Shown here in pieces: positions 5,078-35,587 of a DNA stretch of 64,000 nt. Origin of the DNA: an uncultured bacterium (lineage in GTDB: Bacteria > Bdellovibrionota_C > UBA2361 > CALJRW01); NCBI GenBank assembly GCA_937976335.1, contig CALJRW010000050.1, positions 1,335 through 65,334 of the forward strand, read 5' to 3'. Within the stretch, counting starts at the first letter, position 1, and every line of letters begins with the position of its first letter. Both the position numbers and the translations under genes were made by a program. The notes beneath the pieces are model-generated. The model was not told the origin of the DNA. It was given only the letters and a program-made list of their open reading frames with translations, and searched no databases.

Positions 5078-5101
5078 TATTTTACTATAGATTTAAACTT
5101 T

Positions 5102-5132
5102 GAAACACAGAATTAAAATTAATTCTGTGTTT
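5102..5132 (+). terminator. Perfect 14-bp stem / 3-nt loop hairpin 24 nt after the stop of the repeat-protein gene
   Basis: gaaacacagaatta-aaa-taattctgtgtttc. The downstream tract is only partly T-rich. Confidence 0.5.
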
Positions 5133-5207
5133 CTGCGCTTCTGTGCTTAGATAAAAAAAGAGTGAATAATATTGATTTCTAAACCTCACTGTACTGTGTT
5201 CTTAATC

Positions 5208-5280
5208 TCTTAAAACTATTATAGTTGTCCCTCCCTTCTTCGCCATGGCTTCGGAGGACAAGCCGGGGATATAGAAAGGC
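5208..5280. repeat. GC-rich structured intergenic repeat, copy A (near-identical to 51138-51208)
   Basis: aactattatagTTGTCCCTCCcttcttcGCCATGGCttcGGAGGACAAgccggggatatagaaagg. Stem TTGTCC(C)TCC/GGAGGACAA encloses the palindrome GCCATGGC. Confidence 0.8.
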
Positions 5281-5318
5281 TTTCATAAATTTTCATTTTC
5301 ATTCACTATACTTAAGAT

Positions 5319-5714
5319 ATGAAGATAAGCAGCCATATAGTAAAAATTTTATTCCTAATAATTCTATTCACCTCATCTTGTTCTCCAAACAGATTATACA
5401 GCCCAAAACCTTTCGCAATAACAAAATCGACAAATCAAGATAAAGTTAAACTAGCAATTTTAGAAGTTCTAAATAAAAGAAAGTGGAAAGTGAAAAAGGA
5501 ATTACTTGAATTTATAGAAGCTAAAAGGCGGGATAAACAATATAATGCAACTATTAGAATTCATTTTGATAGAAGACAGGTTAGGATTCGATATTTTGAT
5601 AGTGAAAATTTAAACTATATTTTTGAAGATAAAGTTAGAAAAATTCATCCTAAATATAATAAATGGATAAAAGTGCTTGAAAAGGATTTGCTTAGAACTT
5701 TGAAGGATGTTTAA
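5319..5714 (+). CDS. Small lipoprotein, unknown function
   Basis: 131 aa. Signal plus lipobox (ILFTSSC), then Lys/Arg-rich. Confidence 0.5.
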   Translation: MKISSHIVKILFLIILFTSSCSPNRLYSPKPFAITKSTNQDKVKLAILEVLNKRKWKVKKELLEFIEAKRRDKQYNATIRIHFDRRQVRIRYFDSENLNYIFEDKVRKIHPKYNKWIKVLEKDLLRTLKDV

Positions 5715-5724
5715 TTAACCTGAA

Positions 5725-6087
5725 TTAAACCTTCTCCCAAGCAGATTCTATTATTTCAGTTTCTCCACAAAAAACACATTGTTTTCTTCTAGGATTAATT
5801 TTCCGACCACAACTGTTACATAATTTTGATTTATCTTTTTTTCCATCAAGCTTTCCATCTCTTATGTCAATTTCTTCAACTTTGTTTAATAACATTGTTT
5901 CGCTGATATTTGAAGAATCTCTCAAAAGCTCCCACATTGCTTCAGAGATTAAAGATAATTGATCAATTCTTTCTTCTAAATCAGCTTTGCTCCTTCTGTT
6001 TTCTTTGTTTCCTAACAAAGTATCTGCAGATCTATCTTCTAAATTTCTTATTTGACGTTGCTGAATTAAATTCCAAATCCAAGACAT
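5725..6087 (-). CDS. Hypothetical protein with C-terminal zinc-ribbon (CxxC...CxxC)
   Basis: 120 aa, CNSCGRKINPRRKQCVFCG. Last gene of a minus-strand operon (suhB-like, cinA-C, epimerase). Confidence 0.45.
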   Translation of the reverse strand: MSWIWNLIQQRQIRNLEDRSADTLLGNKENRRSKADLEERIDQLSLISEAMWELLRDSSNISETMLLNKVEEIDIRDGKLDGKKDKSKLCNSCGRKINPRRKQCVFCGETEIIESAWEKV

Positions 6088-6088
6088 A

Positions 6089-7033
6089 TCAAATCTCCCG
6101 ATGCCAATCCCAAAAATTACTCAAACCTTGAGCGAGTGAAGTTTTAGGATTATAATTTAGTAATTCCTTGGCCTTTTCAATATTTGCATAGGTTTGAAAT
6201 GGCTCGGTTTTTGGTGCTTCAACGTTTTTTGTTCTTAATTTATTGCCTGATAGCTTTTCCATTATTTCAATAAAATCAATTAAAGAATGAGGCTCTCCCC
6301 TACCAAGATTAATAATTTCATAGCTTTGGTTTTTTTCAAATGCTGCTATAACTCCACTTACGATATCGTCAATATATGTCCAATCTCTTCTTAACTTACC
6401 AGAATCAAAAAGAGTGATTAAGGAATCATTCTTAAAAGCTTCAGCAATAATAAAAGGCATCATATCAGGTCTGCCTTGCGGGCCATAAACATTAAAAAAT
6501 CTAAGAGCTGTGAAATTTAAACCAAAGCTATTATGATAAGAATACCCCATAACTTCTCCAGCTTTTTTACTTGCTGGATAGGGTGCTAAAGGCTTGTCAG
6601 TTGATTCATGCTCAAAAAATGGCACATTTTCTCTTTGACCATAAACTGAACTAGTAGATGCGAAAACAAAATTTTTTACATCTAAGTCTTTTGATATCTC
6701 AAGCATATTGCTAGTTCCAACAATATTATTTTGCACATATTTTAAAGGTTCATGAATTGACCTTCTAACATTTCCAAGCGCAGCCAAGTGAATTACTTTT
6801 TCAGGTTGATATTTTTTTAAAATTTCAGAAGTTTCTGAGAAATTAGAAATATCTTTTTCTTCTAATGTGAAAGATTGATATTCTTCTAGTATTTTTATGT
6901 TCGCTTTTTTTCTTGTTAGATCGTAATTATCATTAAAATTATCAATCACTAAAACTTCATGCTTTAAATCAAGTAATTTCTTTGAAACATGACTTCCTAT
7001 AAACCCTGCTCCGCCTGTTACTAATACTTTCAT
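6089..7033 (-). CDS. NAD-dependent sugar epimerase/dehydratase (SDR family)
   Basis: VLVTGGAGFIGSHV Rossmann motif and YPASK catalytic YxxxK. Confidence 0.85.
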   Translation of the reverse strand: MKVLVTGGAGFIGSHVSKKLLDLKHEVLVIDNFNDNYDLTRKKANIKILEEYQSFTLEEKDISNFSETSEILKKYQPEKVIHLAALGNVRRSIHEPLKYVQNNIVGTSNMLEISKDLDVKNFVFASTSSVYGQRENVPFFEHESTDKPLAPYPASKKAGEVMGYSYHNSFGLNFTALRFFNVYGPQGRPDMMPFIIAEAFKNDSLITLFDSGKLRRDWTYIDDIVSGVIAAFEKNQSYEIINLGRGEPHSLIDFIEIMEKLSGNKLRTKNVEAPKTEPFQTYANIEKAKELLNYNPKTSLAQGLSNFWDWHREI

Positions 7034-10101: not shown

Positions 10102-10971
10102 TCAAGATAGAAAAGCTCTAAAAATTGCCTGTAAATCTGTTTCTGAGTAGAAATCTACAGTTATTTTTCCCTTCTCATTATTCTTAGAGGAACGAACTAA
10201 ATTTACTTTTAAACCGAGAGCTTTTTGCATTTCATCAATTAGCCTTACATCCTCAGGACTTTTAGCTTTTTGTTTGTTTTTTGCTTTACCTGAACTCTTC
10301 TTTGTTTTCTTTGGACCTAAAGCTTCAATCTCAGTTCTAGTTAAATTATCTATACTAGCTAAAAGCTCACTTCTACGTTTAGGATCTGAAATCTTAGATA
10401 GAGCAAGAATTTTAGACTCGGGTGCTCCCTGTCTTAAAGCATTAAGTAAATCATCAGGTAAATCCAAAAGATCTAAGCTTCTTTGAACTGAGCTCTTAGA
10501 AATGCCTAAACGTCTTGCAATTTCTCTTATAGATAAATCATACGCAGCTTTTAGTGCATCAATTGCATGCGACTTTTCTAAAGAAGTAAGGTTTTGTCTC
10601 TGAATATTTTCAACTAGCTGTATGGCTAAAGTTCTAGCGCCACCATCATCATCAGCAGTATCAACGATTGCAGGCACTGCGCTTAAACCAGCAATTTTAG
10701 AAGCCCTAAATCTTCTCTCGCCGGATACTAAGTTATACTTACCGGGAGTTTTTCCAGGTCTAACCAAAAGAGGAGCAAGAACGCCGTATTCTTTGATTGA
10801 ACTTGCTAACTCATTTAAAGCAGAATCTTCAAAGTATACTCTTGGCTGATTAGTATCTCTTACGATTGCCGCAATAGGAATTTGTCTATAAGGAATACCA
10901 GAGCCTTGTCTCTCTACTATAGTTGGTCCGGTCGATAGTGGGTCTTTTGCTAATCCAAACTTTCTAGCCAT
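10102..10971 (-). CDS. parB: ParB/Spo0J partition protein
   Basis: LVSGERRFRAS ParB box, HTH region SIREIARRLGISKSSVQRSL, 8-nt overlap with parA. Confidence 0.9.
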   Translation of the reverse strand: MARKFGLAKDPLSTGPTIVERQGSGIPYRQIPIAAIVRDTNQPRVYFEDSALNELASSIKEYGVLAPLLVRPGKTPGKYNLVSGERRFRASKIAGLSAVPAIVDTADDDGGARTLAIQLVENIQRQNLTSLEKSHAIDALKAAYDLSIREIARRLGISKSSVQRSLDLLDLPDDLLNALRQGAPESKILALSKISDPKRRSELLASIDNLTRTEIEALGPKKTKKSSGKAKNKQKAKSPEDVRLIDEMQKALGLKVNLVRSSKNNEKGKITVDFYSETDLQAIFRAFLS

Positions 10972-11752
10972 TTAAAATCTCCTCTGCTATTGCACCATAA
11001 TCCTCAGCACCTGAAGACTTTGGAGCATACTCAAAGATAGTTTGCCCCTTAGAAGGTGCTTCAGCAAGTGAAACATTACTACGAATTACACTATCAAAAA
11101 CTAGTTCACCAAAATATGATCTAATAGTTTCTGAAACAGCCCTAGCTAAACGCTTTCTCGCATCGTGCATACATATAAGAACTCCTCCAACTTCAAGTTC
11201 TTGGTTATAAACCCCTCTTACTTGATCAATGGTATCAAGTAACTGTCTTACGCCGTGTAGAGCAAGATACTCGCTCTGAACTGGAATTATCACCTTATTG
11301 CATGCAGCAAGAGCATTTAAGGTTAAAAGACCAAGAGTGGGAGGGCAGTCGATTAGAACTACATCATATTTGTCAGAAATTTTGCTTAAGCTTTTCTTTA
11401 AGAGTAATTCTCTTCCCACAGCGCCACCTAGTTCTAAGTCAGCTGCACTTAACAATAAGCTAGAAGGGGCAACATAAAGATTTTTAGATCTCTCAATAAT
11501 TACTTCATCAACCGTTTTAGTACCTTTTAGAACATCATAAATAGTAAATTCTGGAACAGGTCTTGTTAATTCTGGGTTCTCAGGATTCTCTTCTCCTGAA
11601 AGACCTAAATGTGTAGTTAGATTACTTTGAGCATCTATATCTACAAGTAGGACTTTTTTTCCTTTATTAGCTAAAGCTGAGCCTATATTTACAGTGCTAG
11701 TAGTTTTGCCAACACCACCTTTTTGATTTAAAATACTAATTATTACAGACAT
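10964..11752 (-). CDS. parA: ParA/Soj partition ATPase
   Basis: Deviant Walker A NQKGGVGKTT, 262 aa. Confidence 0.9.
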   Translation of the reverse strand: MSVIISILNQKGGVGKTTSTVNIGSALANKGKKVLLVDIDAQSNLTTHLGLSGEENPENPELTRPVPEFTIYDVLKGTKTVDEVIIERSKNLYVAPSSLLLSAADLELGGAVGRELLLKKSLSKISDKYDVVLIDCPPTLGLLTLNALAACNKVIIPVQSEYLALHGVRQLLDTIDQVRGVYNQELEVGGVLICMHDARKRLARAVSETIRSYFGELVFDSVIRSNVSLAEAPSKGQTIFEYAPKSSGAEDYGAIAEEILNG

Positions 11753-12169
11753 TTAGTTTTAAGCTCCCCTTAGATGAATTACCTAGATAACATAAGTTAT
11801 CGTGATCTTCCATAAAAATACAACAATTCTTTTCATTCTTAAATAAAAAACTACATATCAGATCACGATTGACGAATTTGCATATCGTGTATTGATATTA
11901 ATTATTATACATAGTGAAACGAAATAAGCTTATATAGTGCATGGAAGTTAGTATTCACGTGTAACGAAATTAGCAATATCGTGACTCAAATTAAGGTTAA
12001 ACGTGCTCTGAAGTTAGAACTCTCGTGATTAGAAATAAGTTATATCGTGAAACAACATAAAAAAAGTTAGATAAACTTCTGAAATTAGCTTGATATTTGT
12101 AAGCTTACTAAATAACAATATAACTTATTTAACTTTGTTAAACTACAAAGGTTGGTTTAGAATAAATTT
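11753..12169. other. Putative iteron-type replication origin (oriV-like): iteron array plus AT-rich region between divergent parA and rep
   Basis: Six or more copies of core (A)TCGTGA in both orientations: AAGTTATCGTGATC 11794, GATCACGATTG 11861, CATATCGTGT 11881, AATATCGTGAC 11965, CTCTCGTGATT 12020, AAGTTATATCGTGAAAC 12037. The companion motifs GAAGTTAG and ACGAAAT(T)AGC are also repeated. AT-rich stretch 12054-12169. Confidence 0.6.
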
Positions 12170-13690
12170 ATGAGTAATTCCGAAAGTTCAAATAATATTA
12201 GAACTTCAAAACATGCAGGTATTCAAATTTCTCGAGATGAAATGAATCTTGCTGAATTTCCTATTACGGTACTTTCAACTAGAAGTAATCCAAATATTAA
12301 AACTCTTGAGTTTAGTGATAACATTATTGGGAAAAACGGAAAAGAAACAAAGCGTTCTTGGATAATTACAGGAGCTGATAAATTTGGCCTTCCTACATCT
12401 TCAGATGATGAAGTTTTACTAGGTCTTTTAAAGCTTTCTGTTGATGAAGGTTTAAATGAACCAAAAATTTATTTTACTCGTTATGAGTTATTAAAAATAC
12501 TTCGCTGGACTACTGAAGGACGAAGCTACAAACGTTTGCAAAATGCTCTGGATAGGTTAAGTGGGGTCAGGATTAAGGCCACTAATGCCTTTTATGACAA
12601 TGAATCTAAATCTCATAGTACTAAAAACTTTGGCTTAATTGATGCCTATGAGATTAATGATGGAAGAGATGCTGGAGTTAAACCTAGCTTCTTTATTTGG
12701 AGTGACGAACTATTTAAATCCTTTAAGAGTGGATTTATTAAAAAGCTAGATTTAGATTATTTTCTAAGGCTTAGGAGTGCCGTTTCTAAAAGATTATACA
12801 GATATCTTGATAAACATTTTTGGTACAAGTCTAAAATAAAAATAAATTTGTTCATACTAGCGCACGAAAAAATAGGCGTCTCCAGAAATTACAAGTATGC
12901 AAGTGCTCTAAGACAACAACTAGATCCGGCAATTGAAGAATTAATTGCTTCAGGTTTTATTTCTGAATGTGAATATGTAGGAAAAGGTAAGGGAACTGAA
13001 GTAATTTTTTATTCTGGAAATGCTCGTCCAAGAGTTTTGGATAAAGGGAAAAAAACTAATAATCAAGAAACTCCTAAAAAAAATACCCAAATTAGTATTA
13101 ACTTATCAAAAAAACCATTAAAATTTGACGACTCCGAATCAAACAAAAAAATGAACTTAAGAGACTCGCTCTTATCTAAATTACGAAATAGAGGGTTAAA
13201 AGAAAAACAAGCTGAAGCACTGCTTCCAGATAATCAAAATACATTGGAAAGAATTGATAAAATTATTGTTTATTTTGATAATCTTGTAAGAAATGATTCC
13301 GTAAGAATTTCAAGAAGTCCTGTTGGATTTTTATATAGAGCTGTTGAAAAGCCTCATGAATTTGTTTTGCCTGATGAAGCAATGAGTTCAAAAACTAAGC
13401 GCTCAAGTGTAGTTATTAGTAAGGAATCTGATCAATCAAAACATAGAAAGGAATATGAAAAAGATAGAGCGAAACAGATAGTAAATATAAAAAGAGAAAT
13501 AGAAGCTAATATGCTGTTACAAATTAGATCTGAAACTGAGAAAGGCTTAGTGCAGTTCAAAGAAAAAATTCCAAGAGAGCAATATGAAGCTTCAATAGAA
13601 CACCGAGTTGATGAACACTTAGCAAAGCTTTTTGCTATTCCTACATTTGAAGAATGGAGTAGGGGTGAAGAATGGAGTAGGGGAGAGTAG
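12170..13690 (+). CDS. Plasmid-type replication initiator protein (RepA-like)
   Basis: 506 aa immediately downstream of the iteron array. The N-terminal RDEMNLAEFPITVLS is reminiscent of the 'replication initiator protein A' family. The C-terminus ends in the tandem EEWSRGE repeat. Call rests on position and weak recall. Confidence 0.5.
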   Translation: MSNSESSNNIRTSKHAGIQISRDEMNLAEFPITVLSTRSNPNIKTLEFSDNIIGKNGKETKRSWIITGADKFGLPTSSDDEVLLGLLKLSVDEGLNEPKIYFTRYELLKILRWTTEGRSYKRLQNALDRLSGVRIKATNAFYDNESKSHSTKNFGLIDAYEINDGRDAGVKPSFFIWSDELFKSFKSGFIKKLDLDYFLRLRSAVSKRLYRYLDKHFWYKSKIKINLFILAHEKIGVSRNYKYASALRQQLDPAIEELIASGFISECEYVGKGKGTEVIFYSGNARPRVLDKGKKTNNQETPKKNTQISINLSKKPLKFDDSESNKKMNLRDSLLSKLRNRGLKEKQAEALLPDNQNTLERIDKIIVYFDNLVRNDSVRISRSPVGFLYRAVEKPHEFVLPDEAMSSKTKRSSVVISKESDQSKHRKEYEKDRAKQIVNIKREIEANMLLQIRSETEKGLVQFKEKIPREQYEASIEHRVDEHLAKLFAIPTFEEWSRGEEWSRGE

Positions 13691-25291: not shown

Positions 25292-26791
25292 GTGAATTCA
25301 AAAGTAAAAGTAAAAGAAAAATTCCAAATATCAACAATATTTTATCTAGCTATAGTGTTGTTTGTTTCCTATTTTACTTACTTTAGAGGATACGAATATC
25401 CTAATAAATTATTCTGGGATGAAAATTATCATATAGCTTCTGCCTATAAATATCTCGATAATACTTTTTTTATGGAAATGCACCCTCCGCTTGGAAAGCT
25501 TTTTATTGCCTTAGGTGAGAAAATTTATCATCCAAATGATAATTTAGATTTAAGTTCGGTTAAATACAAAAGTAAAATAAAGATAATACCAAAGAAATTT
25601 TCTTTTAAAGGCTTAAGGTTTTTTCCTGCTCTTTTTGCTTTTTTAAGTGCAGGCTTGTTTTTTATACTCACTTATTTATTGATTGGAAATGCGCATTTAA
25701 GTTTTTTATTTTCATTTTTTTATCTCTTGGATAATGCCCTAATAGTACACTCAAGGGGAGCGATGTTAGATGGCATGCAAATATTTTTTATTTTACTTTC
25801 CTTAGTTTACTTTACATATCTATTTAGTTTGAAAAAACAAAAAAGTGTTACTCAGTACTTTTTAATTGGCTTTTTAATTAGTATCGCAGCTTCAATTAAA
25901 GCGACGTCTTTAATTTTGTTAATATGCCCGTTTTTTATGTTTTGCAGTGATTTTACAAATTTCAAAGAAAATCATGGTTTTATTAGTAGAAGTTTTTATA
26001 CTGAATTATCTTTGAAAATTCTTACATTTTTCAGTGGTTTTTTGTTAATTATCCTTTTTTCATATTTCATTCATTACAGTGTTGCTTCTGAAGTTAGAGA
26101 TGGAAAAACTTATAAAGTAAGTAAAAAGTTTTTAGAACTTGTTGAAACAAAACAAGTTGCTAAAATATTAAATCTACCAATTACTATAAAAGAGAGTGTG
26201 AAATATTTTCTAAATTATCAGAAAGGTGTGCCAACTCTTAAACCTGGGTCTGAGTTTGAAAATGGCTCTCATCCAATATTTTGGCCTTTTGGTAAAAAAG
26301 CAATTAATTATCGATGGGAAAAAGTTTCACAACAAAAAATCAAATATCTAATGCTTCAAATTAATCCAATTGTTTGGTCCTGTGGATTTATAGGTTTGTT
26401 ACTCAGTTTTGTAATTTTTATAGGTCATTTTGTGTTTAATATTCATTGGGAGTGTAGAAAAACTTTTTCTTTTATTTCTTATTTCTTTATCTCATATGTT
26501 TGTTACATGGTAGTAATGCTAAGAATAGATAGAGTGATGTATTTATATCACTATTTTATTCCTTTACTTTTTAGTTTGTTTTTATTCTTTTTGTCTCTTA
26601 AGATGCTTTTTTTAAATTCTTGGAAGAGATATGATAGAGTGCTGTATTTTTCTATTACAACTCTACTGATTTCAACTCTGATTTGTTATTGGTATTTTTC
26701 GCCTATGACTTATTACAAGCCTATTAATATAGCAGAATTTATGTCAAGAAATTGGTTTGATATTTGGCAATATAGGATTATTTATTATTAG
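25292..26791 (+). CDS. PMT-family (GT39) dolichyl/polyprenyl-phosphate-mannose protein O-mannosyltransferase-like
   Basis: FMEMHPPLGKL motif in the first loop, polytopic, 499 aa, GTG start. Confidence 0.65.
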   Translation: MNSKVKVKEKFQISTIFYLAIVLFVSYFTYFRGYEYPNKLFWDENYHIASAYKYLDNTFFMEMHPPLGKLFIALGEKIYHPNDNLDLSSVKYKSKIKIIPKKFSFKGLRFFPALFAFLSAGLFFILTYLLIGNAHLSFLFSFFYLLDNALIVHSRGAMLDGMQIFFILLSLVYFTYLFSLKKQKSVTQYFLIGFLISIAASIKATSLILLICPFFMFCSDFTNFKENHGFISRSFYTELSLKILTFFSGFLLIILFSYFIHYSVASEVRDGKTYKVSKKFLELVETKQVAKILNLPITIKESVKYFLNYQKGVPTLKPGSEFENGSHPIFWPFGKKAINYRWEKVSQQKIKYLMLQINPIVWSCGFIGLLLSFVIFIGHFVFNIHWECRKTFSFISYFFISYVCYMVVMLRIDRVMYLYHYFIPLLFSLFLFFLSLKMLFLNSWKRYDRVLYFSITTLLISTLICYWYFSPMTYYKPINIAEFMSRNWFDIWQYRIIYY

Positions 26792-26792
26792 T

Positions 26793-27350
26793 ATGAGAGG
26801 ACAAAAAATATTTTTAGCATTCTCTTGTTTAACTTTGTTTTTTACGATCTTAAATGTTATCAAGTTGCCAGAAAAAAATATAATTGATGCTAAATTTTTT
26901 AAGTATTCAAAACTTCCTTTATTAACAAATAAAAATAAAAATTCCAAAAAAACTCTTGACTATTCATATCCTAATATTAATTTTCCTTTAGCTCAACTTC
27001 TTCAACATCAAAACTTAAAAATTGTTCCTATAAAAGAAAATTTTAGGGCTGAATTTACAGGTGATGTTAGAGTTTTAAAAGACACAGAAATAGAAATAAT
27101 AGTTAAGTCAGATGATGGATTTCGTTTTATCATAGATAAAAAAGTAATTATTCAAGATCCAAATTTACGAAAATTTATAGAGGTTGAAAAAAAGTTTAAA
27201 TTAACTGAAGGCAGTCATAAGTATATGATAGACTATTTTCAAGCTAAGGGAGATGCTGGGTTGATTATTAGATATAAAGCTAAAAATCAAAAAAAATATT
27301 CTTATTGGGGAGATTCTTCGGGGTATTTATTGTTTAATAATGGGAAATAG
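26793..27350 (+). CDS. PA14-domain protein with N-terminal TM anchor
   Basis: GDVRVLKDTEIEIIVKSDDGFRFIIDKKVI...GDAGLIIRYKA fits the PA14 pattern. Start trimmed to the internal Met just after the PMT stop. Confidence 0.5.
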   Translation: MRGQKIFLAFSCLTLFFTILNVIKLPEKNIIDAKFFKYSKLPLLTNKNKNSKKTLDYSYPNINFPLAQLLQHQNLKIVPIKENFRAEFTGDVRVLKDTEIEIIVKSDDGFRFIIDKKVIIQDPNLRKFIEVEKKFKLTEGSHKYMIDYFQAKGDAGLIIRYKAKNQKKYSYWGDSSGYLLFNNGK

Positions 27351-27353
27351 TAA

Positions 27354-28256
27354 ATGAAAATTGTTATAACGCAACCTCTTGGTTTTTCAGAAAAGCAGAT
27401 TGTTTCTTTGAGTGAACTAGGAGAAGTAACAAGCTATGATAACGTTTGTGTTGATACAGATGATTGGCTTGAGAGGGTGAAGGGAGCAAATGTAATTTGT
27501 TCTAATATAGCAGGCTTAAATGATGCTTGGTCTTTTCTTAAAAATACTTACCTAACTATTCCCTTCGTTGGGTACTCATTTATGGATGTTGAAATTCTAA
27601 AAAAGAATTCAGTTCTTTGCTCTAATAGTCCAGGATGCAATCAAATTGCCGTTACTGAATGGATTATTGCAATGCTTATTAATTACTGTAGAGAAATTCC
27701 AACCTTTATTAAGACAAGAAAAATTACTAAGTCTAAACCGATTATTACTAATAGTATTTATGGAAAGTCTGTATGCATATTAGGCAAAGGCAATATAGGA
27801 ACTCGAGTGGGAAAAGCGCTTGTAGCTTTAGGTTTGAAGGTGAGTTATTTTCAGAGAGGAGATAACCTTGGTTCTAAAGTAAGTAATGTAGATATTTTAA
27901 TCGATTGTTTGAGTTATAACGAAAGTACGAAAAAGTTTTACAATAAAGATTTTTTTAAACTAGTTAAAGAAGGTGTGGTATTTGTGTCTGTTAGTCGAAC
28001 TGAGACTCAAGACTTTGAAGCAATTTTTAAAAATTTAGAAACAGGAAAAATTAAACACTATATTACGGATAATGGAAGTGCAGTTGTTTTTGATGAAGTA
28101 GATAGTACGTATTTATCTTTAATTGAAAATCAAAATATTACAATTACACCGCATGTTGCTGCGTACTCGGATGTAACAATTAGTGTTTCAACCCAAATAT
28201 GTTTTGAAAACATAAGAGCTTATATTTCTGGTCAGCCCATAAATTTGATTTACTAA
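27354..28256 (+). CDS. D-isomer-specific 2-hydroxyacid dehydrogenase family, NAD-binding
   Basis: ILGKGNIGTRVGKAL Rossmann motif and catalytic-domain layout. Confidence 0.7.
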   Translation: MKIVITQPLGFSEKQIVSLSELGEVTSYDNVCVDTDDWLERVKGANVICSNIAGLNDAWSFLKNTYLTIPFVGYSFMDVEILKKNSVLCSNSPGCNQIAVTEWIIAMLINYCREIPTFIKTRKITKSKPIITNSIYGKSVCILGKGNIGTRVGKALVALGLKVSYFQRGDNLGSKVSNVDILIDCLSYNESTKKFYNKDFFKLVKEGVVFVSVSRTETQDFEAIFKNLETGKIKHYITDNGSAVVFDEVDSTYLSLIENQNITITPHVAAYSDVTISVSTQICFENIRAYISGQPINLIY

Positions 28257-28424: not shown

Positions 28425-30575
28425 ATGATAAAATATGAACTACTTATAGTAGGTGCTGGCCCTGCAGGAATTTCGGCTGCTATCAATGCTGCACACAATA
28501 ATATTTCCCATCTACTAATTGATAAAAATGAAATAGCTAGTTCGATTAAAAATTACTTTCCTGGCAAAATCATATCTGACGACAACTTTCTTCCTACTTT
28601 AGGTCCGCTCAAATTTAAGGAGAGCACTAAAGAAGAAATGCTTACATATTTATTATCTAAGATTGAAGAGTATAAAGTTAATTTTTCAAAAGATGAATTT
28701 GTAAGTTTTAGAGAAGCTGATGAAGGAAATTTTGAAATAAAACTTCAGTCTGAAAAAATTATAGTTAAGAAAATTATCTTTGCTTCTGGTTTTGAGAAAA
28801 AAGAAAATAGCGATAATTTTGTTAAAAATTCTCTAGAAAATCTCGATGAATATCATGATTTAGATATAATAATAATTGGTAATAATGATTGCGCTATTGA
28901 GGCATCTTTAGAGTTATGTAGAAGTAACCGAATTTATCTTTTAAATCCTTTCAATAAATTTTATTCAATTTCAAAAATCAATGAAGATAATTTACTAAAA
29001 GCAATTTCTCAAAATAAAATAAAGAGCTATAATTTTGCTAAGACTATTGAAATCTTAGATAGTTCGCTCACATTTCAAACAGAAAATGGATTAAGGAAAG
29101 TAGAATTTGATGAAATATTTTCTTATTCAGAAGGGGAGATAAACCCTAACGTAGTATTAAATGACCTATCATTAGAATTAGAAAAAGGATTCAGTACGAA
29201 TATATCTAATATTTACATGATAGGCTCTTTAACTGGTTTTTTATCTATAAAACATGCTTATTTACAGGGATTCTTAGTTATAGAGGAACTTTTAGAGCAT
29301 AGGTCCGCATTTAGTTATTCGCAGTTTTTAGCTGACTATATAAAAGAGTATGGAACTATAGATGAGCTTAAAAAAGCTTCTAAGTTTTTTACTTATTTAA
29401 ACTTTTCAGAATTATTTTCTTTATTACTTGAATCAAAATTTAGCTTAAAACAAAAAGATGAAGTAATTTTTCAACAGGGAGATAGCGTTGATTCAGTATA
29501 TATAATTTTAAGTGGTTTAGTTAGTTTTGATAATTTAGATTTTATCCTTAATGAAAGTAATATCTTTGGTGAACTTAATTTATTGAATTCAATGCCTAGA
29601 ACAGAAACAGCAAGAATGAGGGAAGCAGGAATTTTACTCGAAATACCTAGAAAGACATTGCTAAAAAATTATAATAATTCAAGTTTAGTGTATTTTATTA
29701 ATCAATCTTATCTTGCAAATTTTTCAATGTGCGTATTTGATATAAATAGCGAAGATTATAATAGTTTGTTTGAATATCTAGATGATTTTGAAGTAAGAGA
29801 ATATGTGAAAAACGATGCTATATTGATAAAAGATAGTTACGTTTTTCTTCAATCTGGATTAATTGAGATAAGAGGTATGCAAGATATTCAAAGACAAAAT
29901 ATCTCTTATTATTTTCAGTATAATAAATTGTTAAATACGATTGAGAATGAGAATCAGAAATTTCAAATTTTAGCTAATAAATATACGAGAACTTTAGAGG
30001 TTAAGAAAAAAGATCTAAAAAATTACATAGATAATAATAAAAAATTAAGTATTGATAATGAAAACTTAAATGTTGCAAAAGCATTAGTCATTGATGCAGA
30101 AAATTGTATAGCTTGTTCAATGTGTGAAAAAGCTTGTTCTGAAACGCATGATGGTAATTCTTGGTTAAGTTTTTCTTCTGGAATGAAGATAGATAATCAG
30201 CTATTAATTACCTCATGTTTGCTTTGTAAGAATCCATTATGTATGAGCGATTGCCCAACAAATGCAATACACAGAAAGTCCAACGGTCGTATTTATATTA
30301 CTGATAACTGTGTCAATTGTGGTAATTGTGTTAGTAATTGTCCATATGACGTAATACAGAGTGATGAATCTTCTATAGGTACAACTTATGTTCCAAATTC
30401 GAATTCATGGCAGGCTAGAGTTAAAAAACTTTTTGGCTTTAAACAAAATCAAAAAAATAATAGAGTATTTAATTGTGATTTATGTGAAGAGTTATTAAAT
30501 GAACCTCCTTGTGTGAATTCATGTCCCACTGGAGCAATTAAGCGAGTTCATTCTTCTCTTTTGGAGATATTGTAA
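28425..30575 (+). CDS. Fusion protein: FAD/NAD(P)-binding oxidoreductase + cyclic-nucleotide-binding domain + two 2x[4Fe-4S] ferredoxin domains
   Basis: LLIVGAGPAGISAAINAA dinucleotide-binding fold. CAP-type cNMP domain IFGELNLLNSMPRTETARMREAGILLEI. Four Cys clusters: CIACSMCEKAC, CLLCKNPLCMSDCP, CVNCGNCVSNCP, CDLCEELLNEPPCVNSCP. Confidence 0.75.
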   Translation: MIKYELLIVGAGPAGISAAINAAHNNISHLLIDKNEIASSIKNYFPGKIISDDNFLPTLGPLKFKESTKEEMLTYLLSKIEEYKVNFSKDEFVSFREADEGNFEIKLQSEKIIVKKIIFASGFEKKENSDNFVKNSLENLDEYHDLDIIIIGNNDCAIEASLELCRSNRIYLLNPFNKFYSISKINEDNLLKAISQNKIKSYNFAKTIEILDSSLTFQTENGLRKVEFDEIFSYSEGEINPNVVLNDLSLELEKGFSTNISNIYMIGSLTGFLSIKHAYLQGFLVIEELLEHRSAFSYSQFLADYIKEYGTIDELKKASKFFTYLNFSELFSLLLESKFSLKQKDEVIFQQGDSVDSVYIILSGLVSFDNLDFILNESNIFGELNLLNSMPRTETARMREAGILLEIPRKTLLKNYNNSSLVYFINQSYLANFSMCVFDINSEDYNSLFEYLDDFEVREYVKNDAILIKDSYVFLQSGLIEIRGMQDIQRQNISYYFQYNKLLNTIENENQKFQILANKYTRTLEVKKKDLKNYIDNNKKLSIDNENLNVAKALVIDAENCIACSMCEKACSETHDGNSWLSFSSGMKIDNQLLITSCLLCKNPLCMSDCPTNAIHRKSNGRIYITDNCVNCGNCVSNCPYDVIQSDESSIGTTYVPNSNSWQARVKKLFGFKQNQKNNRVFNCDLCEELLNEPPCVNSCPTGAIKRVHSSLLEIL

Positions 30576-30576
30576 G

Positions 30577-31389
30577 TTGAATAAGGAAACTTTTTTTAAT
30601 CATAAGAGATATTTTTATCTAAAAGTTTTTTTTCTTTTATATATTTTTTGTTTAATCTTTTTTTGTATTGAAAGCAGTGTAAATTCAAAAACTTTTTCTA
30701 GCATAATTAATCAGATTTTAGGTGTAATTTCTTTTGTTGCATATTGTTATTTGTTATATTTTGGACTTGTAAAACGAAAGTATAAAAGTTTTAAAAAGCC
30801 AATTAAAGAAACTCTTTCAATACATATCTGGTTAGGTGTTTTTTTAATTTTTATAGTCCCTCTTCATTCAGGTTTTTCAAATCTTGGGAATAATTTACAC
30901 AGTTATTCCTATTATATGCTAGTCATAGTAGTATTAACTGGAATATGGGGATGTATTAATTATTCAAGAATGTCATCTGACTTAAGTACCTATGATTCAA
31001 GTTTGACTGAGCTAATTAATCAAATAGAGATACTTAATATTGATATTAAAAAAGAATTAACAGATAAGACAGAAAAGTTTCATAAATTAAAAAATAATTT
31101 TGATTTGAATTTAGAATACAGCTTCTTGAAATTGTTTTTAAAAAGAAATTTATCAATTTTAGATACTCAATCAGCAGCAAGTGCAGTTTTAGATTTAGAG
31201 CCTGAAGAAAGAAATCAAGCTATGAAAGTTATTAGTAGAATTGGGAAAAAAAGAGAGCTACAAATAATGCTTCAAGAAAAAATTAAAAATAATGGTTGGC
31301 TTAAAATTTGGTTATATTTTCATGTGCCTGCATCTTTTGTTGGACTGATTTTAATTCTTTTACATGTTTTTTATATACTAATTTATTAA
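30577..31389 (+). CDS. Polytopic membrane protein, unknown (conserved His in TM helices)
   Basis: 270 aa, four to five TM helices. His residues in TM segments (IHIWLGVF...VPLHSG, LLHVFYIL). Sits between the Fe-S flavoprotein and the multiheme cytochrome. Confidence 0.5.
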   Translation: MNKETFFNHKRYFYLKVFFLLYIFCLIFFCIESSVNSKTFSSIINQILGVISFVAYCYLLYFGLVKRKYKSFKKPIKETLSIHIWLGVFLIFIVPLHSGFSNLGNNLHSYSYYMLVIVVLTGIWGCINYSRMSSDLSTYDSSLTELINQIEILNIDIKKELTDKTEKFHKLKNNFDLNLEYSFLKLFLKRNLSILDTQSAASAVLDLEPEERNQAMKVISRIGKKRELQIMLQEKIKNNGWLKIWLYFHVPASFVGLILILLHVFYILIY

Positions 31390-31390
31390 T

Positions 31391-32923
31391 ATGAAGATAG
31401 TTTACGTTTGTGAAAAGATAGAAGTTGGTGGTCATGTAGAGGAAAGTTCACAAGAATTTGGTCTAGGGGAGCTTATAGTTGGAAGGGGAGGAGATTCTAA
31501 ATTAGTGTTTAAAGATCCATCTCTGTCTCTTGAGCATGCGAAGTTTATACTTTCTAATTCAAGCTTAATTGTTGAAGATTTAAGTAATTCTGCAGGTGTT
31601 TATGTAAATGATTCTTATGAACTTAAGAAAACTTTAAATGAACAAGATATAGTTAAAATTGGCTCAAAAGAATTTTTAATAAAGAAAGAAAATGATTCGT
31701 GGATTTTAAAAGAGACTGTGAATGTTAATGCTGATGAAACTCGAAAAGAAGTTGTTGGAAAAATAGTTGAAGAACTTAATATTTTAAAAAAATCTCCAAA
31801 TATATTATTTTTTAGTTTAATTGCTGGATTAATTACCTTAATTCTATTTTTACTTCTTCCATATTTTGGTTTTAATAAGGCCTTTATTAGCCCTGGCAAG
31901 ATATCGAATGCTCATATAGCTTTTGAAAAAGATTGTGTTAAATGTCATTCAAGTTCTTTTTCCAATGTTAAAAATTCAGATTGTAATGCTTGTCATAAAA
32001 ATAATGAACATCATAATAATTTAACTAAGCTTGTTAATTTAGACAAAAAACTAGATAGAGATTGTGTTGAATGCCATTCCGAACATAAGGGCAAAAATAC
32101 TCATAAATACGAAGATTCAAGTACTTGTATAAATTGCCATTCAAATTCTTCAAATTTAAATGTTGATGATTCTTTACGGGAAGTTAGTAATCTTTTAACT
32201 CACCCTGAATTTAAAACAGATAAAGATTTTATAAAGCATATTAAATTTAATCATCAGTTACACTTTGCAAAAAACTTCGAAATGGAAAATTGTCAAACTT
32301 GTCATGACTTTAGTAAGAAAGTGGAAAAAAGTGTAAGCTATGTTGAAAACTGTAGCTCTTGCCATGCATTAAATTTTGATGAGCGTCTACCAAACTTAGT
32401 TACTCCTCATGTAGAACCAAATTTAGTTTTTAATTTTATGTATTCTGAATATGCTAAGTTATATCTAAATGAAAAGCCTTCAGCAAAGAGTGATTTTGAT
32501 CTTAGTAAAAAACCTGGATATTCAAAAAAAGTTTACTCTAATTTAGATGAAAGAAAATTTGCAAAAGACGTTATTTTAGCAGAAGCCCGTTATTCAGAAC
32601 AATCTCTTTTTGAAGGTGGTGAATGTGCTAAATGTCATAATGTATCAAAGCTTTCTAATGTTGATCTAAATTCTTTAACAAGTATTTATCAAGTCATTAA
32701 TTTATCAAAGAAAAAACTTTCATATAATACACATTCTTTTTCTCACAAAAAACATTTATCTGTATCATGTAAAAATTGCCACGGAGATGTAGCTAGTTCG
32801 AAAGATTTAAAAACGTTAACACAGCCAAGTATTAAAAATTGTTTAGAATGTCATTCGGATAGTGGGAGTGATGGGAAGATAGAGACTCAGTGTGTTGATT
32901 GTCATTATTATCACGGGGAGTAG
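31391..32923 (+). CDS. FHA domain - single TM - multiheme (about 10 CxxCH) cytochrome c
   Basis: FHA: LIVGRGGDSKLVFKDPSLSLEHAKF...NSAGVYVNDS. TM: ILFFSLIAGLITLILFLLL. Ten CxxCH motifs: CVKCH, CNACH, CVECH, CINCH, CQTCH, CSSCH, CAKCH, CKNCH, CLECH, CVDCH. Confidence 0.8.
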   Translation: MKIVYVCEKIEVGGHVEESSQEFGLGELIVGRGGDSKLVFKDPSLSLEHAKFILSNSSLIVEDLSNSAGVYVNDSYELKKTLNEQDIVKIGSKEFLIKKENDSWILKETVNVNADETRKEVVGKIVEELNILKKSPNILFFSLIAGLITLILFLLLPYFGFNKAFISPGKISNAHIAFEKDCVKCHSSSFSNVKNSDCNACHKNNEHHNNLTKLVNLDKKLDRDCVECHSEHKGKNTHKYEDSSTCINCHSNSSNLNVDDSLREVSNLLTHPEFKTDKDFIKHIKFNHQLHFAKNFEMENCQTCHDFSKKVEKSVSYVENCSSCHALNFDERLPNLVTPHVEPNLVFNFMYSEYAKLYLNEKPSAKSDFDLSKKPGYSKKVYSNLDERKFAKDVILAEARYSEQSLFEGGECAKCHNVSKLSNVDLNSLTSIYQVINLSKKKLSYNTHSFSHKKHLSVSCKNCHGDVASSKDLKTLTQPSIKNCLECHSDSGSDGKIETQCVDCHYYHGE

Positions 32924-33112: not shown

Positions 33113-33463
33113 ATGCTAGATGATCGACAGGAAATAGAGTTGGGAGAGACAAGAGAATTGTCGCGAAAGCCTCATTCATTTCATGATATCGATATTGTTG
33201 CGGTACGTGGACGACTCAATCTTGAACTTTCAGCAGACTATACTGTTGCTAAAGTACGAGGCCACAACGCCTATTTCTTATTGGAGAATCCAAATGGTCT
33301 ACCGAGAGGTGGCCGGTATGATTCACTTGCGGAGATCCAGCAGTTTTCGAATGTTTCTTTTCTAGAAGAAACTACACCTGCCTTTCAAGATGCATATTTT
33401 CTTAATATTAATCGGGAGCTTTTGAATTCTTTGGGTATTACCACAACCCCATCTGATAATTGA
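33113..33463 (+). CDS. Hypothetical protein (possible antitoxin partner of the downstream PIN gene)
   Basis: 116 aa, elevated GC, no recognised motif. Its stop lies beside the PIN-domain N-terminus. Confidence 0.35.
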   Translation: MLDDRQEIELGETRELSRKPHSFHDIDIVAVRGRLNLELSADYTVAKVRGHNAYFLLENPNGLPRGGRYDSLAEIQQFSNVSFLEETTPAFQDAYFLNINRELLNSLGITTTPSDN

Positions 33464-33821
33464 CTCTTCAGCTTGGATAGCTTTCTTTTTTGGTAGCAAA
33501 AATGCAAGACATTTTAATAAAGTTATAAGTAATACTGAGTATATTTTAGTGCCGACAATTTGCATATACGAAGTATTTAAAAAAATTTTAAGTGTCAGTA
33601 ATGAAAGTGACGCCATTTCTGCTGTTGCTCAAATGAAAAAAGGACAAGTTTTGGAATTAACTTTTGATATTTCTTTGTTAGCTGCAAAAATCAGTTATCA
33701 AAAAAAACTAGCTATGGCGGACAGTATTATATTTGCAAGTGCTAATGCTTATGATGCTATAATTTGGACGCAAGATAAAAATTTTGAAGGCTTAGAAAAC
33801 GTTAATTATTATAGTGTTTGA
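33453..33821 (+). CDS. PIN-domain protein (VapC-like toxin) with no canonical start codon
   Basis: Frame-0 translation (L)IIDSSAWIAFF...EYILVPTICIYEV...ADSIIFASANAYDAIIWTQDKNF carries the PIN acidic residues. No in-frame ATG/GTG/TTG after the stop at 33423-33425. Candidate CTG at 33453; the six-frame track begins at the internal GTG 33549. Confidence 0.55.
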   Translation: MIIDSSAWIAFFFGSKNARHFNKVISNTEYILVPTICIYEVFKKILSVSNESDAISAVAQMKKGQVLELTFDISLLAAKISYQKKLAMADSIIFASANAYDAIIWTQDKNFEGLENVNYYSV

Positions 33822-34783: not shown

Positions 34784-35587
34784 ATGAGAGATGGAGATAG
34801 TAGAGATAGTAGAGGAAGAAGCGGTCGACGTGGAGATGGGCGCGATAATGGTCGTGGAGATAACCGAGGAAGAGGTGGAAGAAGAAATGGCGGCCGAAAT
34901 GGTAGGGGCCGTGGTGGAGATAACAGAGGTCGCGGTGGTAGAGGCGGATATAGAGGTCGTTCAAACCATAGAAGGCAAGATCCAAGGGCAGCATCTAGGA
35001 GTGGAAATAGAAGAGAGAGGATAGCTGTAGAGAGTGGGTATTTAGTTCTTATTGATCAGTTCATGCTTGCGAATAAACAATTTTCAGACAAAGTTCTTGA
35101 GGTGATAGATGAAGAACCTAATGAAAAAAATGCTATAATTAAATCTTATGGTGGAACGGTTGTGGAGTTGGAACCTGGCACATATAGGATTGATAGAGAT
35201 CCATATGCGTATACAATAGTAATTCATGCAGATGGTGAAAGAGTCGATTCTAAAGAAGCAGTAGATGAAGCTGGTGAAAAAAATGTAGGTAGTGTTTATG
35301 TAGACACACGTTGTCTTGCAATGTTTGATAGAGAATTACTTGATGATAGTGCACTTTTAGATAAATACAGAAGCTTATGGGCTTCAGGTGATGAAAAAGC
35401 GTGTAGAGATCTTCTAAGAGATAACGGTGGAGCTGTTAGATATGGCTTTAGTAGATATGGTGATGAACTAGGAGTTTATTCATTAGAAGATCAAGATGTA
35501 GTTTGTCTTTGGCCTGATGTAGCGGAAGCTAAAAAAGAGGCTGAATCATCAGAAAAATCTGAGGAAGTGGCTCAAGCAGCAGAGTAA
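34784..35587 (+). CDS. Protein with about 90-aa N-terminal Arg/Gly-rich (RGG-box-like) low-complexity region and acidic globular C-terminal domain
   Basis: RGRGGRRNGGRNGRGRGGDNRGRGGRGGYRGR, then a roughly 170-aa unknown domain and an EKSEEVAQAAE tail. Confidence 0.55.
   Translation: MRDGDSRDSRGRSGRRGDGRDNGRGDNRGRGGRRNGGRNGRGRGGDNRGRGGRGGYRGRSNHRRQDPRAASRSGNRRERIAVESGYLVLIDQFMLANKQFSDKVLEVIDEEPNEKNAIIKSYGGTVVELEPGTYRIDRDPYAYTIVIHADGERVDSKEAVDEAGEKNVGSVYVDTRCLAMFDRELLDDSALLDKYRSLWASGDEKACRDLLRDNGGAVRYGFSRYGDELGVYSLEDQDVVCLWPDVAEAKKEAESSEKSEEVAQAAE

Follow-up and report, generated by a model that had tools for sequence, protein, structure and literature searches.

What is the function of three closely packed genes that set a flavo-iron-sulfur protein, a small membrane protein and a decaheme cytochrome c side by side in an uncultured member of the Bdellovibrionota? 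The genes, here called g1, g2 and g3, lie on contig CALJRW010000050.1 of assembly GCA_937976335.1 (lineage Bdellovibrionota_C, UBA2361, CALJRW01), in a stretch of 64,000 nucleotides (nt) that spans positions 1,335 to 65,334 of the forward strand and is called the window below. An original prediction, made from the DNA letters, had read them as an electron conduit across the inner membrane under the control of cyclic nucleotides (cNMP) and of Ser/Thr phosphorylation. The three open reading frames (ORFs) were found exactly at the predicted positions, all on the + strand:

g1, 28425-30575, + strand: 716 amino acids (aa), ATG start; ORF call with Pfam and NCBIfam matches
g2, 30577-31389, + strand: 270 aa, TTG start; ORF call
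g3, 31391-32923, + strand: 510 aa, ATG start; FHA domain, single transmembrane (TM) helix and decaheme cytochrome c

On balance, we think it probable that the trio works as one inner-membrane redox complex for transmembrane electron transfer, in which cytoplasm to periplasm is the likeliest direction. The genes are tight and co-directional as claimed, but the gaps measure 1 nt each and not about 2 nt; because both the g1-g2 and the g2-g3 gap are this short, co-translation of the three genes is suggested. In a six-frame survey of the window down to ORFs of 60 aa, CxxCH motifs occur in g3 alone, which has ten of them. Therefore, the multiheme pattern of g3 is no chance occurrence.

The trio is also conserved as a unit. 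In an ORF-and-phmmer survey of related loci, counting those with enough flank, g1 lies 5' of g2 in 64 of 70 loci and g3 lies 3' of it in 67 of 68. Loci of the g2 family occur in at least 140 species genomes, a lower bound from a one-genome-per-species scan with a single g2 peptide pattern drawn from a 10-sequence alignment; 80 of the 140 species-level loci were fetched. The carriers belong to the Bdellovibrionota, the Nitrospinota and the Alpha-, Beta- and Gammaproteobacteria, and some are cultured isolates. Alphaproteobacterial carriers include Erythrobacter, Altererythrobacter, Sphingomonadales and Rhodospirillaceae, and gammaproteobacterial ones Tahibacter, Haliea, Arenicella, Arenimonas, Lysobacterales, Woeseiaceae and Steroidobacteraceae. 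The closest relatives of the trio are in metagenome-assembled genomes (MAGs) of Bdellovibrionota/Oligoflexia and Nitrospinota, at about 30% identity. Orthologs of g3 nearly always have exactly ten CxxCH motifs. On metagenomic contigs with g3 homologs, a g2 homolog stands in front in every contig examined, and the gene for the cNMP-binding Fe-S flavoprotein lies upstream in all but one (L013). That locus, which lacks g1, has a gene for a CHASE2-adenylate/guanylate cyclase (4698-6959, - strand) divergently oriented and directly 5' of g2, which may connect the system to cNMP signalling.

The membrane protein g2 is central to the proposed complex. It had been described as polytopic with His residues in its TM helices, and five hydrophobic helices were found both by hydropathy and in an AlphaFold2 (AF2) model, at about residues 13-35, 43-67, 76-98, 107-130 and 245-269. 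Two His residues, 83 and 97, lie in TM3, His108 is at the start of TM4, and His249 and His263 lie in TM5. The TTG start of the gene is backed by the N-termini of orthologs and by a GGAG 11 nt upstream. The parts of g2 of most interest are:

g2 TM3, residues 76-98, 30802-30870, + strand: H83 on the cytoplasmic side, H97 on the periplasmic side
g2 cytoplasmic helical insert between TM4 and TM5, residues 131-244, 30967-31308, + strand: helices in the AF2 model
g2 TM5, residues 245-269, 31309-31383, + strand: W245, H249 (cytoplasmic side), P251 and H263 (periplasmic side)

Across 136 family representatives, which share 17-31% identity with the window protein, H83 and H97 are conserved at 100%, H108 at 98%, and H249 and H263 at 96%. 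Further near-invariant residues (G49, G87, G122 and W245) are present in the window protein as well, which scores 329 bits against the family profile. By positive-inside charge counts, the N-terminus, the loop between TM2 and TM3 and the insert of 115 residues are cytoplasmic; under this topology TM3 and TM5 both run from inside to outside. Thus, H83/H97 and H249/H263 form two pairs, each 14 residues apart, on two parallel helices. His pairs of this kind are the textbook geometry for two membrane-stacked bis-His b hemes. The suggestion that the g2 His residues ligate heme is strengthened by their near-invariance at such low identity, and g2 is predicted to be a di-heme cytochrome b with two bis-His hemes across the membrane. 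The insert, of about 115 residues, is charged in composition and differs in length among orthologs, and is a candidate docking surface for g1, the FHA domain or both. H108 (30898-30900) and an uncharged, conserved periplasmic loop (residues 99-106, consensus LHSGFQFGxNxH) are surplus to a bis-His pair of hemes; a quinol site is one role they could have, and contact with the first g3 heme another.

The g2 family is large and has no Pfam model. An exhaustive profile search found 331 representatives at E<=1e-30 and 2131 at E<=1e-10, a representative being a cluster at 50% identity. Sub-threshold matches to PF01292 (prokaryotic cytochrome b561 / Ni-hydrogenase cytochrome b) occur in 10 of 19 family members. 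The ferric-reductase domain PF01794 matches one of the 19, with E 0.011, and the six-TM core of that family was not found.

The third protein of the trio would receive electrons on the periplasmic side. Its predicted domains were borne out, and the "about 10" CxxCH sites are exactly ten:

g3 FHA domain, residues ~26-100, 31466-31690, + strand: PF00498
g3 TM anchor, residues 138-160, 31802-31870, + strand: hydropathy 2.98
g3 periplasmic heme domain, residues 175-510, 31913-32920, + strand: ten CxxCH motifs and ten distal His

The ten motifs lie between residues 182 and 505, where cytochrome c7/c3 families of Pfam match. Ten His residues outside the motifs (175, 208, 232, 271, 288, 291, 340, 452, 455 and 508) are conserved at 92% or more. 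With ten CxxCH motifs and exactly ten conserved distal His, g3 is expected to hold ten bis-His hemes. Such hemes are typical of electron wires. Since c-type heme is attached in the periplasm only and the FHA domain precedes the sole TM helix, with the CxxCH domain after it, the FHA domain must face the cytoplasm, and the predicted topology holds. Across the trio, the similarities to HmcA, HmcB, DsrO and QrcA in an NCBIfam scan were weak and far below the cut-offs; those of g3 include HmcA and QrcA. A cytochrome of the NapC/NirT/CymA type is not indicated, as g3 gave no tetraheme NapC/NirT match in Pfam or NCBIfam, holds ten heme sites and has a cytoplasmic domain before its anchor. Homologs that share the FHA-multiheme architecture are at most 30% identical to g3.

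The FHA domain itself is well supported (PF00498 on residues 29-91, 37 bits against a cut-off of 20.7; Yop-YscD_cpl, 34.5 bits). The window protein has all of its canonical contact residues (R32, S46, H49 and N73), as well as G31 of the GR pair. G31, R32, H49 and N73 are conserved in the family, and the phosphate-binding Ser is found in 10 of 71 orthologs, the window copy included. Gating by Ser/Thr phosphorylation through this domain, as originally proposed, found no backing. Most orthologs lack the Ser, a scan of 36 window ORFs, covering every one of 250 aa or more except three, gave no kinase or phosphatase, and ORF clustering of 93 related loci (L001-L093) showed no recurring kinase, phosphatase or cyclase. 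The recurrent neighbours in those clusters were lineage-local housekeeping genes only. The FHA domain would give the cytochrome a cytoplasmic handle for docking or regulation, one that may depend on phosphorylation. It would not be merely a dock for g1, as it persists in the four loci without g1 that were examined (L027, L045, L060 and L013).

The first protein, g1, likely supplies the cytoplasmic end. It has neither a TM helix nor a signal peptide, placing it in the cytoplasm by prediction, and Pfam and its Cys motifs agree with the domains that had been assigned to it (flavin oxidoreductase, cNMP-binding and four 4Fe-4S motifs):

g1 flavoprotein domain, residues 1-300, 28425-29324, + strand: two-Rossmann fold of the thioredoxin reductase (TrxR), TrxR-type ferredoxin-NADP reductase (FNR) or YpdA kind
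g1 first cNMP-binding domain, residues ~330-415, 29412-29669, + strand: PF00027
g1 remnant of a second cNMP-binding domain, residues ~440-535, 29742-30029, + strand: from the alignment
g1 four-cluster [4Fe-4S] ferredoxin domain, residues 553-716, 30081-30572, + strand: HydN/HycB/DmsB type

In the flavoprotein domain, Pyr_redox_3 matches residues 7-224 with 75 bits, Pyr_redox_2 also matches, and the FAD motif GAGPAG is intact. The nearest NCBIfam models are YpdA (72 bits on the N-terminus) and TrxR, both far below equivalog cut-offs, and the PDB relatives of this part in a family member are TrxR, TrxR-type FNR and Bdr. A thioredoxin reductase was considered and rejected: the window protein has no CxxC outside its Fe-S domain, where no Cys is conserved across the family either, so the redox-active CxxC is missing, and TIGR01292 gave 36 bits against a cut-off of 343. 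The cNMP_binding family PF00027 matches residues 343-414 with 55 bits (cut-off 27.5), and the first phosphate-binding cassette, F381-G-E383 ... R392-T393, is intact in the window and conserved family-wide. In the family there are two tandem cNMP domains, both with intact cassettes. Several Fer4 families match the C-terminus, where 16 Cys form four motifs (C561xxCxxCxxxC571, C598xxCxxxxCxxxC610, C629xxCxxCxxxC639 and C684xxCx8CxxxC700). All 16 are invariant in the family and kept in the window copy. NCBIfam neighbours of this domain are HydN, AegA, DmsB and NrfC, all far below equivalog cut-offs, and PDB relatives of the family domain are HycB3, HycB4 and the FHL subunit HycB.

What the complex may deliver electrons to is suggested by its relatives. 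Most loci extend beyond the trio with three further genes:

g4, ~650 aa: lipoprotein with a lipobox and HbpS-like domains
g5, ~600 aa: no Pfam match, signal peptide, C-terminal Y or F in 42 of 42 orthologs
g6, 1100-1300 aa: signal peptide, ten CxxCH motifs and LVIVD beta-propeller repeats

Given its signal peptide and C-terminal Y/F signature, g5 is likely an outer-membrane beta-barrel. The lipoprotein gene was found in 49 of 60 and the decaheme-propeller gene in 44 of 51 loci with enough flank, and many loci also have a tetraheme gene resembling cytochrome c554. Together, the trio and these genes read as an inner-membrane module joined to an outer module like a porin-cytochrome complex. A minority of genomes, such as those of Tahibacter aquaticus and Erythrobacter, have the bare trio with no outer-membrane genes adjacent. 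In four Nitrospinota loci (L015, L021, L023 and L024) the tetraheme gene follows g3 and does not precede g1, and the longest-ORF call for g3 is 900-1020 aa versus about 560 aa, still with ten CxxCH; these calls start at the first start codon and may be overextended.

Given the above, electrons would enter the complex on the FAD of g1, with NADPH as the donor in the family as in TrxR-type FNRs, and pass to its four [4Fe-4S] clusters. In g2 they would cross the membrane over two stacked b hemes, the inner one ligated by H83 and H249 and the outer one by H97 and H263. In the periplasm they would be taken up by g3, a wire of ten bis-His c hemes on one TM anchor, and in most relatives passed on to the periplasmic tetraheme cytochrome and the outer-membrane set. 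In the window, the inner-membrane module alone is seen. Because the cNMP domains lie between the flavin and Fe-S modules, they may act as an allosteric gate on this flow in response to cAMP or cGMP.

The outward direction is likely as the membrane potential and the expected potentials both support it: an electron that moves outward follows the membrane potential, and NADPH at -320 mV is a favourable donor to bis-His hemes. The opposite course, from an Fe(II), cathode or Mn(II) donor through the outer set, g3 and g2 to g1 and an acceptor such as NAD(P)+ or another, would fit the Fe(II) oxidisers among the carriers (Gallionellaceae, Ferrigenium) and the biocathode Haliea MAG, the Mn-enrichment bin MnTg04 and the Nitrospinota. 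It would also fit a layout like that of Hmc/Tmc, in which periplasmic electrons go inward. Such uptake would have to run against the membrane potential and, from donors at about 0 to +300 mV, far uphill to FAD or NADP+, using a five-TM g2 with no evident ion-coupling machinery. Moreover, the carriers are mostly aerobic heterotrophs or predators (Erythrobacter, Sphingomonadales, Tahibacter, Arenicella and Bdellovibrionota). Electron uptake appears quite improbable, and import to NAD(P)+ was rejected as the main model, being doubly uphill with no visible coupling device.

Several points weigh against the outward transmembrane complex. The cofactors of all three proteins are predictions from sequence. 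The PF01292 match of g2 falls short of the gathering threshold (28.5 versus 30.1 bits). The AF2 model of g1, built from a seven-sequence input, is poor (pLDDT 56, pTM 0.34) and of low confidence across the remnant of the second cNMP domain, and was not used for fold search or domain geometry. Also, six of the 70 loci lack g1 and keep g2 and g3 (L027, L033, L045, L058, L060 and L064, from Arenimonas, Alpha- and Betaproteobacteria and a Gammaproteobacteria MAG). Nothing obvious replaces g1 in these six, which have response regulators, histidine kinases and unrelated genes instead. Three of them (L027, L045 and L060) combine g2-g3 with outer-membrane genes; the others (L033, L058 and L064) are short or have g2-g3 with the tetraheme gene only. 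As g2 and g3 are kept in these loci, the pair can work with another donor, such as quinol.

It may be, then, that g2-g3 is a quinol:cytochrome c (or cytochrome c:quinone) oxidoreductase, functioning like CymA/NapC, ImcH/CbcL or alternative complex III (ACIII), with g1 as an accessory, regulated side input. The six loci with no g1 or replacement cytoplasmic partner nearby speak for such an enzyme, H108 and the conserved periplasmic loop go beyond the needs of two hemes and could form its quinol site, and the C-terminal hemes of g3 bear a weak likeness to ACIII ActA. A link to the quinone pool was also favoured for the similarly described cluster of Ferrigenium (bioRxiv 10.64898/2026.01.22.701106). 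We nevertheless regard this as rather unlikely: g1 is present in 91% of loci and abuts g2, a four-cluster ferredoxin fused to a flavoprotein suits delivery to a membrane partner, and neither g2 nor g3 matches a NapC/NirT, NrfD or NarI family in Pfam or NCBIfam.

Other difficulties for the outward complex are peculiar to the window copy. Its g1 can be aligned end to end with 67 orthologs, all 67 of which have the NADPH motif VGAGDAAIENA...NR..EF.RAK in the second Rossmann fold, thus the GxGxxA and the Arg residues for the 2'-phosphate that mark TrxR-type FNRs. In its place the window protein has GNNDCAIEAS...NP..KFYSISK, with G154N, R175P, R181S and K183S among the changes. NAD(P)H, the donor originally proposed, accordingly fits the family, where the motif is essentially invariant, but is doubtful for the window g1. 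The second cNMP cassette is gone as well, lost in a deletion that, compared with every ortholog, removes about 22 residues. In total, the window g1 is off consensus at 92 of 197 family-conserved columns, where the others have a median of 2 and at most 9. Searches of the 64-kb window by tblastn with the proteins of a related locus (L007) found no outer partners, and the outer-membrane genes could lie elsewhere in the genome. Identities to four relatives indicate that the divergence is specific to g1:

g1: window versus four relatives 29-30%; relatives among themselves 54-60%
g2: window versus four relatives 26-37%; relatives among themselves 37-42%
g3: window versus four relatives 29-33%; relatives among themselves 29-35%

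The FAD motif, the 16 Cys, the first cNMP cassette and all heme ligands of g2 and g3 are retained. Since the NADPH site is lost, the donor in this copy may be other than NAD(P)H, and the part played by the flavoprotein may be smaller or different.

One way to read these losses is decay. The window trio, partnerless and with its flavoprotein drifting to loss of function, would be a relic; the confinement of the divergence to g1, with g3 as conserved as in relatives and g2 slightly lower, the many deviating columns, the lost NADPH motif and second cNMP cassette, and the missing outer-membrane set are all consistent with this. Yet the three ORFs are intact with no frameshift, and every cofactor ligand is kept (the FAD GxGxxG, 16 Cys, five g2 His, and ten CxxCH with ten distal His), as are the first cNMP cassette and the 1-nt spacing. 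In addition, trios with no adjacent outer-membrane genes exist in other genomes, as in Tahibacter aquaticus and Erythrobacter. Decay is thus the least probable of the explanations weighed here.

A second way to read them is that the trio, at least in this copy, is a redox sensor, in which the heme state would be relayed via g2 to the Fe-S/flavin/cNMP protein and the FHA domain and on to cytoplasmic targets. The complex contains an FHA and a cNMP-binding domain, both classic in signalling, the window copy has neither the NADPH motif nor outer-membrane partners in 64 kb, and the CHASE2-cyclase gene adjoins g2-g3 in one related locus. For a sensor, though, the strict retention of 16 Cys for Fe-S clusters, four His for heme b and twenty ligands for heme c would be very costly, and no output domain (kinase, GGDEF or DNA-binding) is fused to the trio or conserved nearby. 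A sensor therefore seems improbable. A transmembrane complex with outward flow remains the explanation we favour. Its most specific form is a second-messenger-gated, NOX-like NADPH:periplasmic-cytochrome oxidoreductase of three subunits, with a new di-heme b family, that bypasses the quinone pool and, in bacteria that are mostly aerobic, feeds a porin-cytochrome conduit under a cAMP/cGMP switch; the window copy would be naturally minimised, its NADPH input exchanged or lost. Taken as a whole, that version is tentative and may well not hold in every part.

Upstream of the trio, on the + strand (25292-28256), three genes that overlap or nearly abut form their own operon 5' of g1; they encode a GT39/PMT-type glycosyltransferase (499 aa), a 197-aa protein with a PA14 domain and a 2-hydroxyacid dehydrogenase of 300 aa. 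The dehydrogenase (27354-28256; 2-Hacid_dh_C match, 83 bits), 168 nt from g1 and part of this separate overlapping set, had been suggested as a source of reductant, an idea that found no support; in none of the other loci surveyed was it seen beside the trio. As their neighbourhood with the trio is not conserved, the dehydrogenase, PA14 and PMT genes were rejected as members of the system. Directly 3' of g3 (33113-33821, + strand) are a 116-aa ORF and a 90-aa ORF with a weak PIN-domain match, which may be a toxin-antitoxin pair. Further on (34784-35587, + strand) is a 267-aa ORF with no Pfam match, whose first ~75 residues are of low complexity and rich in Arg, Gly and Asp (RGG/RGD repeats); it lies in a locally GC-richer stretch (0.354 versus ~0.27-0.30 nearby). 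A promoter and terminator scan was uninformative in this AT-rich DNA (28 promoter-like sites versus 31.6 expected), an Rfam search of the window gave no match, and the window proteins that were looked up fall into unnamed singleton clusters. Genes for ParB (10102-10971, - strand) and ParA (10964-11752, - strand) lie beside one for a RepA-type replication initiator (12170-13690, + strand; PF10134 and Rep3_N), together spanning 10102-13690, and the same contig encodes housekeeping proteins (ALAD, ThrRS, a class II aldolase and a Mrp antiporter). With a public-record length of 71.7 kb, the contig may be a chromid or a plasmid-type replicon.

To our knowledge, Gram-negative routes from cytoplasmic metabolism to periplasmic or extracellular multihemes go via the quinone pool, by CymA, ImcH or CbcL. 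If the proposed complex is real, it would offer a direct, quinone-independent path from a cytoplasmic reductant to multiheme wires, with second-messenger control, in hosts not considered electroactive (Sphingomonadales, Erythrobacter, Tahibacter, Arenicella, Bdellovibrionota and Nitrospinota). The gene module is also found in Fe(II) oxidisers and bacteria of oxygen-deficient zones, where two groups have flagged the expressed cluster. The di-heme-b prediction provides a concrete hypothesis for a five-TM family that lacks a Pfam model. The window g1 could serve as a natural experiment, having dispensed with the NADPH and second cNMP sites in a system that kept its Fe-S, b-heme and c-heme ligands.

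The architecture had been taken as not described before, but three earlier reports mention such a cluster, all with function unknown, and no experimental work on the trio family was found in the literature. A 2023 pangenome of the Gallionellaceae lists a cluster with a "Forkhead-associated protein" of ten CXXCH motifs in 27 genomes (PMC10734462). A 2024 preprint proposes a ptdABCDEFG operon in the marine Alphaproteobacteria UBA11136 (bioRxiv 10.1101/2023.11.21.568154). For Ferrigenium straubiae, a 2026 preprint reports a cluster named "NHC", in which an FHA-nonaheme protein is accompanied by a five-TM and a [4Fe-4S] protein; according to its authors, fusions of FHA to a multiheme had not been reported before, the TM protein has no redox motif, and the cluster is expressed in all tested conditions (bioRxiv 10.64898/2026.01.22.701106).

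By description, PtdE (cNMP-binding, with 4Fe-4S clusters) would match g1, PtdF (a "ferric reductase-like" transmembrane protein) g2, PtdG (decaheme) g3, and PtdD (tetraheme) the c554-like gene of relatives (bioRxiv 10.1101/2023.11.21.568154). Alpha- and Gammaproteobacteria are shared between the ptd taxa and the trio carriers, whereas the Nitrospirales of that preprint are not the Nitrospinota found here. The preprint makes no mention of FHA, tandem cNMP domains or the His-pair pattern. Unlike the ptd operon, the window has no ptdA-D-like genes, and its g1 is degenerate. The NHC and Gallionellaceae clusters can be likened to the trio, also by description, as a membrane-anchored multiheme cytochrome with a cytosolic FHA domain beside five-TM and [4Fe-4S] proteins. 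Nine hemes were counted in NHC and no redox motif in its five-TM protein, whereas here five near-invariant His point to heme b. Its authors propose that electrons flow inward from Fe(II) to quinone, while flow in our model is outward.

Among characterized systems, NOX, STEAP and MsrQ (the latter with the flavin reductase Fre) resemble the trio in passing electrons from cytoplasmic NAD(P)H to a flavin, two b hemes and an acceptor outside. In NOX2 the His pairs are on TM3 and TM5 with a spacing of 13-14 residues (His101/115 and His209/222). The pairs of g2, likewise on parallel TM3 and TM5, agree with this pattern of NOX and ferric reductases, but g2 differs from these in having five TM helices, not six, and a cytoplasmic insert of 115 residues. 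Unlike in NOX, the dehydrogenase of the trio is TrxR-type and not FNR-type and is encoded apart from the membrane protein, and four Fe-S clusters come in between; the acceptor would be a decaheme wire and not O2, Fe(III) or MsrP as in NOX, ferric reductases and MsrQ.

TmcABCD, HmcABCDEF and DsrMKJOP of sulfate reducers share with the trio the order of three layers, from a multiheme cytochrome c in the periplasm over a cytochrome b in the membrane to an Fe-S protein in the cytoplasm, and g3 has cytochrome c3-family matches and weak ones to HmcA and QrcA. The trio, however, has no HdrD-type CCG domain and gave no NarI/HdrE or NrfD match in Pfam or NCBIfam, while those complexes take electrons inward from H2 or formate and have no flavin, cNMP or FHA modules. 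The flavoprotein part of g1 is like TrxR-type FNRs (PDB 2zbw, 5ygq and 3ab1), two-Rossmann flavoproteins without a redox-active CxxC; their GxGxxA and Arg-rich NADPH motif is kept in the g1 family and not in the window copy. AegA/YgfT and HydN/HycB have a four-cluster ferredoxin module like that of g1. From TrxR-type FNRs and AegA-type fusions, g1 differs in domain order, in the inserted tandem cNMP domains and in its predicted coupling to a membrane cytochrome. The tandem cNMP domains of PKA-R and PKG align with residues 326-569 of a g1 family member (E down to 2e-19). In g1 these domains are inside an oxidoreductase with no kinase partner, and the window copy keeps the first cassette only.

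As far as we found, several points are new: that g2 is assigned two b hemes and g3 ten bis-His hemes, that the cNMP domains of the family come in tandem, how broad the family is, and that g1 alone has degenerated in the window copy. The system itself is real and conserved, and in its logic it is a transmembrane redox complex like NOX and Tmc that carries unusual signalling inserts.

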